A stretch of DNA of 64,000 nt from a virus (Duplodnaviria > Caudoviricetes): positions 12,649-76,648 of IMG/VR virus record IMGVR_UViG_3300047160_003616; one strand, written 5' to 3'. Shown in pieces: positions 15,920 to 63,063 of the stretch. How positions within the stretch are numbered: position 1 is the first letter of the stretch; each line of letters begins with the position of its first letter. Below the pieces are notes generated by a model. That model was not told the DNA's origin, ran no database searches, and saw only the letters and a list, made by a program, of their open reading frames with translations. A program made the position numbers and the translations under genes.

Positions 15920-16648
15920 CTACGGCATGGTGATGCCGTGTGGCACGATCACGTCGCCCTGGGTCATCAGCAGGGTCTCGAAATCGCTGAAGCTCACATC
16001 GAATTGGCCCCTGCGCCCGAAATCCGGGCCCCAACTGGTCAGACAGGTGACCAGCTGAGTGCTGTAGTTGATACCCAGGGCCAGGTACTCATGTCCCCCG
16101 GCCACGTTCTCATCAGTCAGCGCCCCGATATGCACCAGCCCGGAGGGGTCCGGGTTGAACATAGAGCGCGTCCATAATGTGCCCACCAAACATGGCGTGA
16201 CCTGCAAAGCGGCACGAAATTCAGCGAAGCCGAAACAATGCTGGTATCTGTCGGCCCAATTCAACTCCACGGCGGCCTTAGCTATATCCAATCCATCGCT
16301 GCCCCCATCATGGGGCGGATAAAAATACTCCGGGTCGCCCTCCTCGTGGGTGGCCACCGAGTAGAACTGCAGCGCCAGGGACTCGGTGCACCAACTCACC
16401 TTCTTGGCCCGCCGCACCGGGGCGGCGAAGTCGGTATTAAAAAATCCGGCCATCGCATTGCCGGTGCAGGCGTTGGTGTTCCATTGATTCAAAATTGGCT
16501 GGGTATAAGACCACAGCGTCGTTACGTCACGTGACGGTTTGTCGGCCGCAAAGGCGTAGTTAAGCGAGCGCGTGTCGTGATGGATGTGACGCCCCAACCG
16601 GTAGGGCGCATCGGTGGGCACCGGCAATTTATGAATGATCTCGGCCAT
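15920..16648 (-). CDS. Papain-like (C1A-type) cysteine peptidase
   Basis: Q.N.N.C (catalytic Cys), GGHE (His), TSWG in place of NSWG, GRRGQF. Confidence 0.8.
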   Translation of the reverse strand: MAEIIHKLPVPTDAPYRLGRHIHHDTRSLNYAFAADKPSRDVTTLWSYTQPILNQWNTNACTGNAMAGFFNTDFAAPVRRAKKVSWCTESLALQFYSVATHEEGDPEYFYPPHDGGSDGLDIAKAAVELNWADRYQHCFGFAEFRAALQVTPCLVGTLWTRSMFNPDPSGLVHIGALTDENVAGGHEYLALGINYSTQLVTCLTSWGPDFGRRGQFDVSFSDFETLLMTQGDVIVPHGITMP

Positions 16649-16683: not shown

Positions 16684-17372
16684 GTAAAGCCCCTGCCTTG
16701 CCGAGCCCGGCCTAGCCACGCCCAACCTGGCCTTGCCAGGCCTTGCCGAGCCCAGCCTTGCCCGGCCGCGCCGCGCCAAGATCTAGCCTCCTCACCTATT
16801 AGGTGGGGAGATGAAGGTAAAACCCCTGCCCTGCCCCGCCGGGCCGAGCCAGGCCGTGCCCGGCCTTGCCGATGCCGCGCCGCGCCAAGCCACGCCCTGC
16901 CTAGCCATGGCAAGTCTGTTGAAAAATTGAGTTGTGATAAAGCCCCTGCCCTGCCATGCCGCGCCTTGGCTAGGCGAGCCACGCCGTGCCATGCCGTGCC
17001 AAGCCTAGCCACGCCTAGCCGGGCCTAGCCGCGCCGGGCCACGGCCTGCCGAGCCCTGCCATGGCAAGTCTGAAGTTGTGTGTAAAACCCCTGCCCTGCC
17101 TAGCCCAGCCGTGCCGGGCCGAGGCCAGCCACGCCGCGCCTAGCCATGCCAGGCCATGCCTCGCCACGTCAAGTCATGAAATTATTGTTAAAGCCCCTGC
17201 CTTGCCTAGCCTCGACACGCCACGCCCAGGCCCGCCCGGCCATGCCAGGCCTCGCCGAGTCCGTGAAAGATTTGAATTGTAGGTAAAGCCCCTGCCTCGC
17301 CGAGCCGAGCCCCAGCCTTGCCTTGCCTCGCCGTGCCACGCCACGCCATGGCTTGCCAAGCCGCGCCCTGCC
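16684..17372 (-). ncRNA. Array of six GGC-NN pentamer-repeat units (candidate guide RNAs, VIPR-like)
   Basis: Units 17283-17372, 17188-17262, 17082-17175, 16937-17072, 16817-16918, 16684-16788; each about 12-24 GGCNN pentamers ending in GGCAGGGG(C/T)TTTA, separated by AT-rich linkers. Confidence 0.85.
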
Positions 17373-17376
17373 ACGA

Positions 17377-17934
17377 TTATTTGTCGCCGAGCAGCCCTTC
17401 CAGTCGTGTCAGCCGTTCCTGCACTTTATCCAGCTCGGTGGTGGTGTGCTCCTTGGTGCTGCGATGATCCTGCTGAATCAGTTGCATCGCTGCGGCCAAC
17501 TCACGCTGTTGCACGTCCAGGCGGCGGCAGAAGTCCACCTGGGCGGCGAATGCCGCCCCCACCACCTCAAAGGCTTGCCGGGCGATGGGGTCCAGGGCCA
17601 ACCAGTCCACATGAGTCACCGCGTTTTGCCCGCGCACCAGAGCCTTGGAGGACTTGCGCTGATGCCGCCGGGCCAGCCGCATGTGCTCGGGGGCCTGAAG
17701 CACGCGATAACCCGTGTTAATCACCGCGTCAATAGCACGGTTGTCGACACGTTCAAACTCGCGGGCGGCCCGCTGGGTGGCCTGTTGCAGCACCCGGCGA
17801 TCCTTATCCCCGTCGAGACCCAGCGCCTCACCCATCGCCTCGTAGGTCAGTGTCCCATCCACGGGGGTGGTCCTGAGCAGGTCGTAGATGACCCGCCAGC
17901 GGGCTCGCTCGTTGAGCGGGGAGAACGGGCTCAT
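17377..17934 (-). CDS. HTH/coiled-coil accessory protein of the RAMP-pentamer locus
   Basis: LTYEAMGEALG winged-HTH-like segment, C-terminal heptads; ATGA-coupled to the RAMP gene; stop 4 nt before the array. Confidence 0.75.
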   Translation of the reverse strand: MSPFSPLNERARWRVIYDLLRTTPVDGTLTYEAMGEALGLDGDKDRRVLQQATQRAAREFERVDNRAIDAVINTGYRVLQAPEHMRLARRHQRKSSKALVRGQNAVTHVDWLALDPIARQAFEVVGAAFAAQVDFCRRLDVQQRELAAAMQLIQQDHRSTKEHTTTELDKVQERLTRLEGLLGDK

Positions 17935-18506
17935 GACTGCTTGACCCCCATCACCTCAAAGCGACCGTAGAGGGGACGACGCTCGCCCAGTCCGATCAAC
18001 AGCCCCGCCGTGGTGGCGATGCGTTCGATGTCCACCAACTCCAGCAGGGCCGTGTCCAGGGTGCCGTTGACCTCCACCGCCCACTCGGGGAACCACGGGC
18101 GCACTCGCATCACCCGGCTGGCCCCCACCTTGACGCTGGCCCGGTAGTAGAACGTGGCCGCGTACAGCTCCTCGACGGTGCGCGGGCCCTTGTAGCCCAG
18201 CGCGATCACGTCGTCCTTGATCAACACGCCCTGCTCCACCTGCTTGCCCTGTTTGGTCTTGCGACCACCCTCGATCAGGCACTTGAAGATGTTGGCACCG
18301 GGGATATAGGGGCCCTCCACTTCATCGAAGTAGATCCCGCCGAAAAACTCGGTGCGGGCCAGCAGGTGATGGTCCTCGTCGGTCTTGTTGCGTTTTCGGG
18401 TCAGGCGCTTGACCTCTTTGGCCGCGGGATCGAGCGGATCGGCCAGCCGGGCACTGTGCATGATCAGCGGACGGGTTCCCCGAAGGGTGAGGGTGAAATC
18501 AATCAT
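17931..18506 (-). CDS. Stand-alone Cas7/RAMP-like protein (Vipr-like)
   Basis: FTLTLRGTRPLIMH (beta1), PYIPGANIFKCL (RAMP P.IP motif), RVRPWF, C-terminal G-loop AGLLIGLGERRPLYGRFEV. Confidence 0.8.
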   Translation of the reverse strand: MIDFTLTLRGTRPLIMHSARLADPLDPAAKEVKRLTRKRNKTDEDHHLLARTEFFGGIYFDEVEGPYIPGANIFKCLIEGGRKTKQGKQVEQGVLIKDDVIALGYKGPRTVEELYAATFYYRASVKVGASRVMRVRPWFPEWAVEVNGTLDTALLELVDIERIATTAGLLIGLGERRPLYGRFEVMGVKQS

Positions 18507-58200: not shown

Positions 58201-59568
58201 GGTCACGACGGTGGTCACGGTAACCCCGCCCCCGGTCAGGTTGGTGATGTCGGGGACCAGGTTGGCGATGGCCTGGGCACCCAGGTTGTTCAGGAAGGTC
58301 ACCGTCCATGGCCCTCCGGCCAGCCCGGAGGTCACCAGCAGATTGCCCGCGCCGATGGAGGACATGCCGACCAGCGCGGACTGCAGCGCGGACGGGGCGG
58401 CGTTGTAGGGGATCGGCACCGAGATGGCCCCGCCGTAGGACAGCGTGAAGGTGCCCCCGGTCGGGGACCCGGTGACCACGATGGTCTGCTCGGCATTGGA
58501 GTAGCCCGGGTTGAAGTCCGGGGTCCACTCGATGCCGACCCAGGCGTCCTGATTCTTCAATGGCCCGGCGGCGAACGGGAACTTGTAGTCGGTGGTGCCC
58601 CCGACATCGGAGATGTCCCAGCGCCCGGTGCCCTGCTGCCACTGGGTGTTCTCGTCAGTGGTGGGCACCGCGGTGACCGGGGAGAGCTTGCGGGTGCCCA
58701 CCGAGTCGTCGTTGGAGTAGTACACGTTGAGCATCTGCCCGGCATAGACCGGGTCCAGATACAGCGTGTCCATCAGCTGCGCGGCCCCGCCCGCGTTCCG
58801 CACGTCCAGGTAGAGATTCACCACGGCGGCCGGATCGGGCTGGGGCATCGACTTCCAGTAGGTGTGCGGGTGGTTGTCAAAACACTTGGCGGCGTCCCAG
58901 TGCTTGAGGTAGGACGCGAAGATGTTGCCGACCGGGTCCTGTGCGGGCTCGATGCCCTGGGTGCCGTCGGCCAGCGTGTAGATGTTGCGCCGGATCAGCC
59001 CGTTGCGGATACCCACCACGTAGGGCTGGGTGCCCACCAGCGGGTCGTAGACCCGGGTGATACGCCACTGCACCGCTTTGGCCACGATGGGATAGCAGTA
59101 GAAGTGCGCGGTATACCAGGCCTGCGTCTGGGAAACCGACAGGTCCACGGTGAGCGGGTTCATGGTCTCGTCACAGATCGCCCGCCAGTTGTTGAGCCGG
59201 TCCAGATACCACAGCTCGATGTGACAGCCCACCCGCAGCGCGTCGAAACCCATCTCCGAAACGGAAAGCGGCAGTTTGAAGTTGACCGTGAGCACCTCGG
59301 TCAGCGACTGGGGCAAAGCGGCCGAATTGGCCGGGCGCGGCTGGCTAAACCACATCCGTAGCGCCGGGGGCTGCACCACCTGTGGGGTGTTGGGATCGCC
59401 TTGGGTGTTGGCGCAGCACTGTTGCAGCAGGCTGTAGAGCCCCAGCGGGATGGAGAAGTCGACGTACATCCCCTCGACGGCGGAGGTGAGCGCGGTGCTG
59501 GCGGCATTGGCGATGGAGGTGACCGCGGAGACCGCGGAGTTCAGGGCGGCTCCGATGGCGGCGGTCAT
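55270..59568 (-). CDS. Large virion structural protein (baseplate/tail, carbohydrate-binding-like domains)
   Basis: 1432 aa, beta-rich, follows baseplate genes; EQTIVVTGSPTGGTFTLSY repeat-type motif. Confidence 0.75.
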   Translation of the reverse strand: MTAAIGAALNSAVSAVTSIANAASTALTSAVEGMYVDFSIPLGLYSLLQQCCANTQGDPNTPQVVQPPALRMWFSQPRPANSAALPQSLTEVLTVNFKLPLSVSEMGFDALRVGCHIELWYLDRLNNWRAICDETMNPLTVDLSVSQTQAWYTAHFYCYPIVAKAVQWRITRVYDPLVGTQPYVVGIRNGLIRRNIYTLADGTQGIEPAQDPVGNIFASYLKHWDAAKCFDNHPHTYWKSMPQPDPAAVVNLYLDVRNAGGAAQLMDTLYLDPVYAGQMLNVYYSNDDSVGTRKLSPVTAVPTTDENTQWQQGTGRWDISDVGGTTDYKFPFAAGPLKNQDAWVGIEWTPDFNPGYSNAEQTIVVTGSPTGGTFTLSYGGAISVPIPYNAAPSALQSALVGMSSIGAGNLLVTSGLAGGPWTVTFLNNLGAQAIANLVPDITNLTGGGVTVTTVVTGGQPGGPPQNPILLQVVPANPTTGQFCPTIYYDVGAAEIVLKLTDGTTTYGPGSGLPGCPLSPLPTQYTPLRIMVGWEYSPSPTVFIEVTTSRQAVLGTVSQPLPPACTQMSFDGTIGFHDFRGLFTAHVIKLENWATAVPSFMANPQVYVSPDPVIPDSHGNIPATSLDNAIYAAAWVMQEHGTGGGDATHYTEKTWTPVWRDYLCQKGKLFFPQQISCKYLNLEFSNLTPEPYPVYDAGIQTSYQVFPVSVTQSITTSGPRPSGLAGLLTVGADVLLQGVGSVNWLNPSTINKAVNSLYGQTVSPMSVTTGPGYNTSTLPNTVDLSLTEQTRTEVSSPWLFKRQVPNPTTLAAQQINVTTSAPLIQSGATALAASSLLPVANGSNPADAFTPLLNNAFAPTTLPQQGADWWVFPGGTLRLPAAVMNGLTALTDVVTGRVITTDTRLRFTTTMVHRYDVRTVTRDAAVGYFAGIREVQPYVTTYINEQDPDVFAFSLYDPVATWVATNTASLASGPITTATPFSYEILNSNFDTDINNWIQQTGVWSFDPAIGHWYLGAATVTADGTTKTLVSSYMDVTPGTHIDASVWAHWTGLAAPSGALAIQLCAFYYNAPVPRVDETDAPFVSSDVRGLTYSPWPASTPADPGGNVWVQITAAAADSTGFTVPPGVNVMRLALVVDSSATAGQVWFDTVEVSTTDATEGTLFRDFQTTSQFNKVTCVFTDTGLVRSDDMWATPNLNDTNVGATDLAYYTTLIPDQIPAGMWADSFADWSDQIIVWGEPRAVVAIQVDPNRTFQGKRVLHFTRAAGAGIAGVKIRQQLNFVAGGLFRIGAIYYKPNANANQVTVALRRISDGVYIYEETFTPIVGYWFEYLSDFIAIPEVDDQQYSVEFTCSGDAADEMYLNDLWCDIAQIRYRVGMGSIGENPLLDVTALRYTGLAITSCTDPVQEFYVQVAILSPHSYAYGASFTPNYLN

Positions 59569-61067
59569 GAGGTCCTCACGAAGTTAACTGGATTACCCGG
59601 CTCGGGGATCAACATCCCGGTGGGATCGCTGCGCTGCCGGGTGATGGACACCGAGATTGTGGACTCCTTGGCCGGGGGATAGTAGGCGATGGCCAGATCC
59701 GGGGTGAACACCATGGCCGCCGAGGAGATGGTCTGCACCGGCAGCTGGTAGCCGGTCGGGGTGGTCTGCCCGCCCAGCGCCAGCACCTGCAGGGTCTTGT
59801 GGTCCACGTAGTCGGCCTGGCTGGTGTAGGGGAAGACATACGGCGTGCCGTCGGGGTTGAGCGCCGGGGGCGTCTGCGGATGGATGCCGTATTTGCCGCC
59901 GGGATAGTTGTCCGGGGAATCAGCGGTCTCAAACGGGATGGTGGCGGTGTACTGCCCGGTCTCGTTGAACACCTGGAAGTTGGCCTCGGTGCGGTAGGTG
60001 CTCATCGGATCGGCGTTGGTGGTGTCGATGGTGCCGTAGGTGACCGAGTCGATAGGGCTGCGCTTGCCCCCGCCCACCAGGTAGTAGTAGCCGAACTCAG
60101 CACTGATATTGAACGCGGTGTAGGGGGCCAGAGTGGGATCGGATTGTGCGTCGTAGAGCCAGGTTTCGCTGGGCAACAGGTCGATGGGCAGCATCTCGGG
60201 CGGCGGCAGCTGGGCCAGTATCGGGGTGGCGGTGACCTTCTTCTCCACCTGGTAGTAGGTGGAGTCGCTGGCGGCGGTCTGCACCGGTATCGGGGAGTTG
60301 ACCGCCAGCCCGTTGGCGTTGACGGTGAAGATCACGTCGATGGGCCCGATCTTGTCCAACATGTCGCGGCACAGCCGGATCTCCTCGGGGGCCAACGGGT
60401 TCTTGTAGGGCCTAATCGCCACCTCGTTGCGCACCCCGCGCTGCTGCACCGACCACGGCGGGCCGTTGGCGGCGACGTAGGTCGCAGCGTCGGCCTCGGT
60501 CTCAAAGATCTCCTCGGCCCCGGTGACCAGGTTGACCGCGACATAGACGGTGGGCGTGGGGGCCCGGCCCAGATCGGCGGTCAGCCCGTAGTTGTCCCGG
60601 TAGCGCCACACCTCGTAGATGTCGCAGTCCACCCCGACGGCGGCCTGGATCGTCATGCGGATGCCGTTGGGCGTGCCGCCGAGGTTGCAGGCCTGGAAGA
60701 AGTCCACGATGCGTGCCCGGTACCAGGCGTCCTTGACCCGGATCTCGTCCCACTGGTCGCTGGTGAGCTGATCGAGCATGCCGTTCCACGGGTAGGACTC
60801 GGCCGGGGAACGGGCCAGGAAGTTGATCTTGCCGAAGATGTAGTCCAGCTCGTTGAAATACACCGTCTGCAGCGCCCCGCCGAGCCGGGCCAGGAACACC
60901 TGGTTGGTCAGCGACCCGGCCCCGGTGGTACCGCACAGCGCGTCCACGAACTTGTACAGGTTGGTGTCAGGCGTTGCGGTGTAGACGTATTCGTCAAAAT
61001 GGGCCAGCCGCGCCTCGGTGGACCGGGGCGGCATGAGCGGGAACGGGTCGGTGGTGCCCACAATCAT
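59565..61067 (-). CDS. Baseplate-associated structural protein
   Basis: 500 aa immediately downstream of baseplate J; LD.IFG, ACN.GGT..GI. Confidence 0.7.
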   Translation of the reverse strand: MIVGTTDPFPLMPPRSTEARLAHFDEYVYTATPDTNLYKFVDALCGTTGAGSLTNQVFLARLGGALQTVYFNELDYIFGKINFLARSPAESYPWNGMLDQLTSDQWDEIRVKDAWYRARIVDFFQACNLGGTPNGIRMTIQAAVGVDCDIYEVWRYRDNYGLTADLGRAPTPTVYVAVNLVTGAEEIFETEADAATYVAANGPPWSVQQRGVRNEVAIRPYKNPLAPEEIRLCRDMLDKIGPIDVIFTVNANGLAVNSPIPVQTAASDSTYYQVEKKVTATPILAQLPPPEMLPIDLLPSETWLYDAQSDPTLAPYTAFNISAEFGYYYLVGGGKRSPIDSVTYGTIDTTNADPMSTYRTEANFQVFNETGQYTATIPFETADSPDNYPGGKYGIHPQTPPALNPDGTPYVFPYTSQADYVDHKTLQVLALGGQTTPTGYQLPVQTISSAAMVFTPDLAIAYYPPAKESTISVSITRQRSDPTGMLIPEPGNPVNFVRTS

Positions 61068-61094
61068 CTTCCTTTAGCTAAAATCGACAATCTC

Positions 61095-61153
61095 GGCTGG
61101 GCCAGGCTGGACATGACCAGGCGGGGCCTGGCAAGGCAAGGCAAGGGTTTTAC
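61095..61153 (+). ncRNA. Orphan GGC-NN pentamer unit (seventh copy)
   Basis: 10 pentamers ending GGCAA-GGGTTTTAC; TAAAAT at 61079-84 upstream. Confidence 0.7.
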
Positions 61154-61239
61154 TTCAGCTGATTCATGCCCTGAATCCATCTCCAAATCACATAGAGCAA
61201 TACACAGAGGCCGATGATGACGGCGATCAGGGTGAGCAT
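61150..61239 (-). CDS. 29 aa membrane peptide
   Basis: MLTLIAVIIGLCVLLYVIWRWIQGMNQLK. Confidence 0.45.
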   Translation of the reverse strand: MLTLIAVIIGLCVLLYVIWRWIQGMNQLK

Positions 61240-61296
61240 CAGGTCCCTCTTCTCGACGGGGCCCCCTCCGGGGGCCCGAGCAAAAATGATCTTGAT

Positions 61297-63063
61297 TCAC
61301 GGGGTCGCTACCCGCCGCAGGACAACCCCTTGATAGACGGCCAGCTGATTGTCGGCGAGCTTGAAGTCGGCGACCTCACTGACCGCGGGGGAGGGATCGG
61401 AAGAGTTGTTGAAGATCTGGATGCCATAGGCCAGCGGGGCATCGGCACTCTGGGTGACCTTGCAGTCCACCACCCCCAGCGTCTGCTGCACGTACATGGT
61501 GATCACCGACAGCTTGACGCTGACCCCGAAAGGCATGGAGTTCCAGAACGATTGCATCCGGGTGATGATGTTGGAATTGACCGTGGCCACCGAGTAGGTG
61601 CGGTCGTATTCGATGTCCAGGCAGGGCTGCAGGTAGGCGAACGTGCCCTGGTGCACCATCACATCGGTGGTGATCTGTTTGGCCGGAGCGATCAGCGCGC
61701 CCAGCAGCTGGGGCACCTGGTTGTAGACGTAGTCCAGCGTCACCGGGGTGCCGGTGGACGGCCCGGCCGAGGACCATTCCACCCCGGCCACCTCGGCGGC
61801 CGAGCCTTTCAGCAGGGTGGTCGGGTTGGGGCTGCCCGGATTGGTGTTGGGGGCCAGCAACCAGTAGTGGGTGCCCCGAGTGTAGACCACCCCGCCGATG
61901 GTCAGCGTGGACGGGAAACTCACCACCGGCACCGAGCCCAGTCGCATGAACCGATTGCCCGCGGTAGGAGACCCCGCCGACCCGACGCGCTCAAAGTTGT
62001 CGGTGTAGAGCGCGTCCGAGGTCAGCGAGGACAGCGTGGCGGCGCTGACCGAGGTCGCCTCGGTGACCGCGAAAGGTGAGACCCCGTCGACAAAGATGTC
62101 CACTTTGTTGCAGATGCCGTTGAGCGGATTGTTGCGGCTGCTCTTGGTGGTGTACTGGAACTCCAAGTCCACGATGTTGCCCGGCACCAGTGCCCCACTG
62201 GAGATGGTGGTGAACTGCGGGCTGGTGCCCGCGGTGTAGATGTAGTCGTTGATCGGGGAGTAGAAGGTCTCGTTCTCCTGGCCCAGCTGATCAAACACCG
62301 ATTCCATGGCGGGCCAGGCGTATTTGACATCCTGATTGACCGGCAGGATCACCTCGGTGGTGGGTACCGGGATCTGGGTTTTGTATAGCGAGAGCGGGCC
62401 ATACACCGCCACCCGGCTCACGTTGTTGTTCTGCTGGCACAGCGCCTCGTAGTAGTCGGAAGTCCCGGCCATGTTGCGCAGCAGGGTGTCCTTGAAGCGC
62501 TGGCGCAACTCGGCGTCGGTCTCCGGGTCCACCCCGCCTGTCATCGCGCCCAGGTTGGTCACCGTGGACCCGCCGATCACATCACCCACGTAGGTGATCG
62601 AATTGGGCGGCACGTTGCCCGTAGAGCCCACCACGGTGCACTGCACGGGCACGTCGCAGTTGAGGTTGCCGGTGGTGAGCACCACCGCCTGGGTGGAGGC
62701 GAAGTAGAGCGTGGTGATCATCCCGGCCAGCCCCGGCGTGGTGTAGAACTGGGTGCCCAGCTGGAAGGTGTAGTCCTGGGTCGAGGGCATGGTGACGGTC
62801 ACCCGCACCACTCCGGTGGCCGCCTGCCCCTGCAGGCGGCCGAACCCGAAGATGCCCACGAACTGCTCCAGCTCGGCCCCGGATTTGGTGTCGATGTCCA
62901 ACAGGGAGCCCACCAGATACTGGGCCACCGAGGCTTCTGAGATGCACTCGGCCACCGCGTCCACGATCTTGCGCTCGGGGGTACCGACCTCGCAGGACAA
63001 CGTGGGCATAGTGTTGGCCAAAGTGGCCAACATCTGTTGGGAATACTGCGTGGGGGTGGTCAT
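61297..63063 (-). CDS. Baseplate J-like protein
   Basis: G.EL..FV..FGF.RL.G..ATG.V; V.C...G..GNV; GG.D.ETDAELRQR. Confidence 0.9.
   Translation of the reverse strand: MTTPTQYSQQMLATLANTMPTLSCEVGTPERKIVDAVAECISEASVAQYLVGSLLDIDTKSGAELEQFVGIFGFGRLQGQAATGVVRVTVTMPSTQDYTFQLGTQFYTTPGLAGMITTLYFASTQAVVLTTGNLNCDVPVQCTVVGSTGNVPPNSITYVGDVIGGSTVTNLGAMTGGVDPETDAELRQRFKDTLLRNMAGTSDYYEALCQQNNNVSRVAVYGPLSLYKTQIPVPTTEVILPVNQDVKYAWPAMESVFDQLGQENETFYSPINDYIYTAGTSPQFTTISSGALVPGNIVDLEFQYTTKSSRNNPLNGICNKVDIFVDGVSPFAVTEATSVSAATLSSLTSDALYTDNFERVGSAGSPTAGNRFMRLGSVPVVSFPSTLTIGGVVYTRGTHYWLLAPNTNPGSPNPTTLLKGSAAEVAGVEWSSAGPSTGTPVTLDYVYNQVPQLLGALIAPAKQITTDVMVHQGTFAYLQPCLDIEYDRTYSVATVNSNIITRMQSFWNSMPFGVSVKLSVITMYVQQTLGVVDCKVTQSADAPLAYGIQIFNNSSDPSPAVSEVADFKLADNQLAVYQGVVLRRVATP

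Follow-up and report, generated by a model that had tools for sequence, protein, structure and literature searches.

The locus considered here raises the question of whether a solitary tract of GGY-NN pentamers, lying inside a late operon of a phage and far from a six-unit array of the same kind, is a gene for a guide RNA and, if so, against which sequence the guide would be directed. The whole stretch of DNA that was analysed (hereafter the window, 64,000 nt) is part of a 76.6-kb contig present in soil metagenomes. The phage is an actinophage-type myovirus with about 70% DNA identity to Mycobacterium phage Phrappuccino, Myrna, and cluster C phages.

Guide RNAs of the VIPR systems (vrRNAs) consist of 9–16 GGY/NN repeats followed by an invariant tail and recognize their targets by a 1-nt skip rule with wobble alignment, with silencing possible on either strand (bioRxiv 10.64898/2026.04.26.720920). 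According to the VIPR preprints, one Vipr protomer is bound per repeat, G2 is specifically bound, the NN pairs read DNA, and the skipped base is usually at the codon wobble position. A solo vrRNA is defined by the absence of a vipr gene within 20 kb; such RNAs are known from satellites and VIPR-null phages, their redirection of the VIPR of another element is documented, and an identity of 0.8 serves as the cut-off for a target (bioRxiv 10.64898/2026.10.15.759431).

The coordinates of the features discussed below are given in Table 1.

Table 1. Features of the solo unit, its surroundings, and the VIPR locus (positions in the window).
Feature	Position	Strand	Basis or remark
vrRNA array, six units	16684–17377	−	Same tail core; ends in an intrinsic terminator
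Vap-like accessory gene (185 aa), flanked by vipr and the array	17377–17934	−	Assigned by position only
vipr gene (RAMP protein, 191 aa)	17931–18506	−	Match to SUSP1 Vipr; presumed partner of the solo guide
DUF7297 virion structural gene	59565–61067	−	Directly downstream of the target site, late operon
Segment absent in L008	61068–61149		Comparison with L008, where the small ORF–virion gene spacing is 6 nt
−10-like hexamer TAAAAT	61079–61084	+	10 nt before the first pentamer; predicted promoter function
Guide tract, ten pentamers	61095–61144	+	Sequence reading; in-phase GGY scan
Conserved 14-nt end (last pentamer and tail core)	61140–61153	+	Common to all six array units
Tail core GGGTTTTAC	61145–61153	+	Directly after pentamer ten
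29-codon single-pass membrane ORF (small ORF)	61150–61239	−	Own, poorly matched target allele; L008 homologue of the same length
Own near-target, codons 19–28 of the small ORF	61157–61185	−	14/20 to the guide, skipped bases on wobble positions
Baseplate_J-like gene	61297–63063	−	Upstream of the cassette

Composition of the solo unit and its kinship with the array

Re-reading of the locus confirmed the pentamer sequence that the initial annotation had reported on the plus strand, including the position of TAAAAT upstream of it. The tract is composed of ten units in perfect register, which is within the range of 9–16 tandem GGY-NN pentamers per vrRNA; eight of them are GGC-NN and two, units 4 and 5, are GAC-NN. 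The NN pairs are, in order, TG, CA, TG, AT, CA, GG, CT, AA, AA, and AA. The last pentamer is GGCAA, as against GGCAG in six of the six array units.

All genes around the unit are on the minus strand, and its tail overlaps the stop codon of the small ORF. The unit had been described as lying between two baseplate genes; its location between genes stood, while the flanks proved to be the 29-codon membrane ORF and the DUF7297 virion gene, so that the unit fills a gap of about 83 nt. A 78-codon frame that crosses this gap looks like an out-of-frame artefact and is unrelated to the Cys-rich gp86 at the Phrappuccino junction.

The hexamer TAAAAT is found in three copies on both strands of the contig (2 × 76.6 kb), and TANNNT occurs at 0.19% of positions. 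The copy considered here is situated in the AT-rich (37% GC) left end of the segment that is absent in the closest relative. A consensus promoter and terminator scan of positions 60800–61500 revealed no consensus promoter, no −35 element, and no terminator.

The resemblance of the repeat and the tail to the array exceeds chance. With at most one mismatch, GGCARGGGYTTTAY has seven matches in the window (the six array units and the solo unit), compared with 0.11 expected by shuffles, and at least six of eight in-phase GGY triplets occur only in the array and at the solo site over the whole 76.6-kb contig. A profile built from the six array 3′ ends (nhmmer) recovered the solo site with E = 1.6e-7 as the sole match outside the array at E < 1. 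These data, with the 14-nt signature shared with six of six array units and a distance to the array of 43.7 kb on the opposite strand, bear out the earlier description of a seventh unit with an array-type 3′ tail located about 44 kb away on the other strand.

Thermodynamic folding of the seven tails (six from the array and that of the solo unit) gave no shared or consistent fold, and beyond the tail core neither sequence nor fold is conserved, even among the array units. The roughly 40-nt pseudoknotted tail of the SUSP1 clade is thus not seen in the solo unit, and because the seven tails have no consistent fold, we file it in the wider VIPR kind and not in the SUSP1 clade. The tail variant GGCAA-GGG also ends vrRNAs of another viral contig (L024), and non-GGY units (GAC, GTC) are present in vrRNA arrays of other viral contigs. 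A search against Rfam gave nothing at the gathering score and one sub-threshold snoRNA-like match, which we judged to be due to chance.

The array is part of a VIPR system, as can be seen from the 191-aa protein of the same locus. This protein aligns along its entire length (residues 6–186) with the Vipr protein of SUSP1 (PDB 36pp_D, E = 1e-32), and residues H17 and R138, which contact the two guanines, are conserved in the alignment; the phage thus encodes a homologue of the protein that loads vrRNAs. No informative family match was obtained for the 185-aa accessory protein. The vipr gene nearest to the solo unit is 42.6 kb away on the same contig, and since the published definition is based on the absence of vipr within 20 kb, the unit is a solo vrRNA.

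It should be noted that in the Vipr protein of this phage the G-loop residues corresponding to D-W-R of SUSP1, which contact G1, G2, and Y3, are E-R-R; this difference may have a bearing on why the guides of the phage can contain GCC, GTC, and GAC units. In array unit 1 (17300–17377, minus strand), a one-base register slip occurs at a sequence resembling a truncated tail start, and this unit may represent two units fused after the loss of one tail.

Predicted guide target and variability of the junction

We scored guide–target pairs by the published 1-nt skip rule over the 20 guide-read bases. The closest relative found is a metagenome contig of a related soil phage, L008, with 74% protein identity in the DUF7297 gene; it is the single relative found to carry the small ORF, in the form of a colinear 29-codon homologue at the same junction. 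The initial annotation had proposed a search for a gapped target, and this search led to an in-frame match in the syntenic gene of L008: at positions 1736–1764, the guide pairs with 18 of 20 bases in codon phase, over codons 19–28, with the skips on wobble positions.

Other skip rules gave scores of only 11–14 on L008. Of 2000 base-shuffled and 2000 unit-shuffled guides, not one reached 18 on this contig, and the number of 18/20 matches expected in L008 from base composition is 2e-6.

In the own contig, only three sites among 153,000 positions score at least 14/20, one of which is on the opposite strand at a distance of 4 nt from the guide tail, while shuffled guides on the same contig gave a mean best score of 14.0 and a maximum of 16. 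The own and L008 alleles differ at four guide-read bases (codon positions 1–2), which corresponds to 14 versus 18 of 20; the own allele has six mismatches to the guide, four of them within the last four units. With identities of 0.90 and 0.70, respectively, the L008 allele passes the published target cut-off of 0.8, whereas the own allele falls below it. Codon changes between the alleles affect 4 of 10 codons inside the guide footprint versus 5 of 19 outside it; we do not regard divergence as higher inside, and the data therefore do not indicate that escape of the own allele was directed.

Wider searches returned the following. No perfect 20/20 target was found, and the exact first nine guide units had no match in IMG/VR. 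A scan of IMG/VR with the 18 guide bases that match L008 gave eight loci that represent two unrelated low-GC sequences, which is about the number expected by chance, and these candidates were rejected. The conserved first 24 nt of the small ORF had no match in IMG/VR; in prokaryote genomes the same 24-nt pattern occurred only in unrelated genes, and no match was obtained when the small ORF was compared with cultured phages by tblastn. A 9-nt indel between the guide and the own ORF was considered and dropped, since L008 shows both ORFs to be colinear.

When all seven guides were compared with the contig, no self-target scored above shuffles, with the exception of array unit 6. The best contig match of this last array unit, at 16209–16258 (plus strand), includes 24 of 34 guide bases with the skips on wobble positions, and this score was reached by none of 500 unit-shuffled guides. 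The match falls in a 242-aa gene (15920–16648, minus strand) about 430 nt past the array end, so that unit 6 repeats the pattern of the solo unit, a near-target in the gene next door. The 242-aa gene has no relatives in IMG/VR.

A check for an empty site in relatives, also suggested at the outset, gave a clear result: in L008, the spacing between the small ORF and the virion gene is 6 nt, and the repeat is missing. The segment missing there holds the whole solo guide gene together with the minus-strand ribosome-binding site of the virion gene. Because L008 is without the repeat, the segment of about 83 nt (hexamer, guide, and tail) was either gained here or lost in L008. More distant relatives have neither the small ORF nor the repeat. 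The idea that the units are mobile is thus upheld as far as gain or loss of a unit at this site is concerned, but not as regards a mechanism of mobility, as no flanking duplications were seen.

Soil assemblies add to this picture. One soil contig carries the cassette unchanged, yet it has 19 differences in the Baseplate_J gene 270 nt away, all within 150 nt (61426–61576); this sharp mosaic boundary suggests a recent recombination between co-occurring strains. In a more diverged soil contig, positions 61049–61281 are replaced by 70 other letters. This position of the genome is a variable slot, and there is recombination between sister strains that occur together.

A copy of a dispersed GC palindrome is located at 61245–61275, in the spacer that separates the small ORF from the Baseplate_J gene. 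In L008, an additional membrane ORF of 82 codons occupies this place, so that the palindrome marks a scar left by deletion or replacement.

Proposed mechanism and alternative explanations

We consider it likely that the solo unit is a vrRNA gene of the phage's own VIPR system and that the predicted RNA silences the allele of a rival and spares that of the phage itself. A stand-alone guide acting in trans, as the initial annotation had put forward, is the best reading of the empty site, the 18/20 in-frame match in L008, the Vipr homologue, and the array-type repeat grammar and tail core. For its transcription, loading, and silencing activity, and for its role in competition, we predict the following.

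Host polymerase would probably start a small plus-strand RNA at the local −10-like TAAAAT. Vipr encoded at the distant locus, 43 kb away, would assemble along the repeats as a polymer that buries the GGY bases and leaves the ten NN pairs exposed; these pairs would read codon positions 1–2 in the last third of the 29-codon membrane ORF. The filament would then bind the sensitive allele on a co-infecting relative. The target is 14–42 nt before the virion gene, and because it lies just ahead of this gene inside the late operon, a roadblock at this site would be expected to stop the expression of the downstream baseplate and tail genes. The own allele would be spared by its six mismatches. With the guide and the resistant allele so close together, only a few bases apart, recombination could not easily part the two, which would prevent self-silencing recombinants. 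Judging by the matches found, the guide is probably a weapon against close relatives.

More tentatively, it is possible that the guide and the resistant allele form a linked cassette that acts as a selfish allele-killer. Such a cassette would silence the late operon of sister phages with the sensitive allele, only genomes or recombinants with the whole cassette would yield virions, and guides would spread, or arise, beside the gene that they discriminate. Some support for this proposal comes from array unit 6, whose best match (24/34) is also in the gene next door. Guides beside a resistant copy of their own target are not described in the VIPR preprints.

Among the alternatives, we regard it as unlikely that the unit is a decaying relic, a former guide that is no longer transcribed or loaded and whose match to the relative is a fossil of its past function. 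The two GAC units, the single substitution in the last pentamer, which does not vary otherwise, and the failure to find a −35 element and a terminator in the 60800–61500 scan are what decay would produce, but the register is perfect over ten units, the tail core is kept, and 18/20 identity to a living allele is retained. Moreover, the tract is identical in several soil assemblies while nearby coding sequence varies, and intact arrays also hold non-GGY units. A role in self-regulation, in which the guide binds the own small ORF and times or damps transcription of the own baseplate operon, is very improbable in our estimation: the best nearby match is indeed in the own operon, in codon phase and 4 nt from the guide gene, but a score of 14/20 (0.70) is within the range of shuffled guides on the contig (mean best 14.0, maximum 16) and below the literature cut-off of 0.8, and the relative's allele fits far better.

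We give equally little credence to a decoy, by which the RNA would load the Vipr protein of a co-infecting rival and divert it in the manner of satellite solo vrRNAs. Redirection of another element's VIPR by solo vrRNAs is documented (bioRxiv 10.64898/2026.10.15.759431); however, the tail core is that of the phage's own array, the phage encodes its own Vipr, and the predicted target is an essential operon of the rival and not a repeated decoy site. Finally, the tract might be no guide, but a GC-rich stretch that is periodic by chance, or it might serve as a structural element in the late mRNA of the minus strand. Its position in an intergenic spacer of a minus-strand operon is compatible with this, as is a fold of the region no better than that of shuffles; nevertheless, the tail signature, the register, the profile match, and the skip-rule-specific match to the relative would then be left unexplained, and Rfam offers only a sub-threshold chance match, so that we find this explanation scarcely credible.

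Comparison with known systems

Solo vrRNAs as a kind are already known from the 2026 preprints, and what is new here is the host group and the genomic setting. The unit resembles the solo vrRNAs that F5 satellites and VIPR-null phages of the SUSP1 family carry (bioRxiv 10.64898/2026.10.15.759431) in its GGY-NN tract with a cognate tail, in the lack of vipr within 20 kb, and in self-match scores below non-self scores, as well as in action in trans and competing mobile elements as targets, both of which are predicted here. Its carrier, however, is a VIPR-positive soil actinophage-like myovirus and not an enterobacterial phage or satellite, and the unit is inside a baseplate operon, on the opposite strand, and not at a former VIPR locus. 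The predicted target also differs, being a rival allele of the adjoining gene, whereas the published solo vrRNAs are directed against vipr, vrRNAs, REP elements, and a satellite.

The type II VIPR system of Escherichia phage SUSP1, consisting of Vipr, vap1, and a vrRNA array (bioRxiv 10.64898/2026.04.26.720920 and 10.64898/2026.04.26.720927; PDB 36pp), shares with the system described here a homologous Vipr (E = 1e-32), a two-gene operon followed by the array, a code with 1-nt skips at wobble positions, and 9–16 repeats per RNA. The differences are in the tail, which here consists of a short conserved core in which no pseudoknot could be detected, in the G-loop (E-R-R versus D-W-R), and in the accessory protein, which here is without a recognisable family.

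Phage-borne CRISPR mini-arrays and solitary repeat units are likewise viral stand-alone guide genes aimed at competing viruses, with the effector encoded elsewhere. Unlike them, the solo unit has no repeat-spacer architecture, its guide is non-contiguous, the effector would be a Vipr filament, and the predicted outcome is silencing and not cleavage.

Binding sites of the TRAP type consist of triplet repeats with 2–3 nt spacers, and the five-base periodicity of a conserved triplet and a variable pair is similar to them. We dropped a TRAP-type site as an explanation, since the units range in number from 10 to 23, their variable pairs spell a decodable gene sequence, and the presumed partner is a RAMP protein and not a ring protein.

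Read as a solo vrRNA gene, the locus widens the range of solo VIPR guides, described from enterobacterial phages and satellites, to include a soil actinophage that is itself VIPR-positive, and it provides an example of a guide aimed, by prediction, at the structural operon of a sister phage. It also offers a concrete pair of alleles, the sensitive L008 type (18/20) and the resistant own type (14/20). If tight linkage of a guide and a resistant allele is general, it would explain the avoidance of self-silencing and the inheritance of guides, and it would hint at the origin of new guides, a point left open by published work.

For two vrRNAs of L024, no near-targets were found in the 5 kb that this contig comprises. 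In two high-GC viral contigs, L023 (9800–11450, minus strand) and L007 (3449–3700, plus strand), vrRNA arrays are interspersed with GC-rich hairpins that match no Rfam family; the hairpin loops read like tRNA T-loops (GGTTCRA), and these hairpins may be a processing signal.
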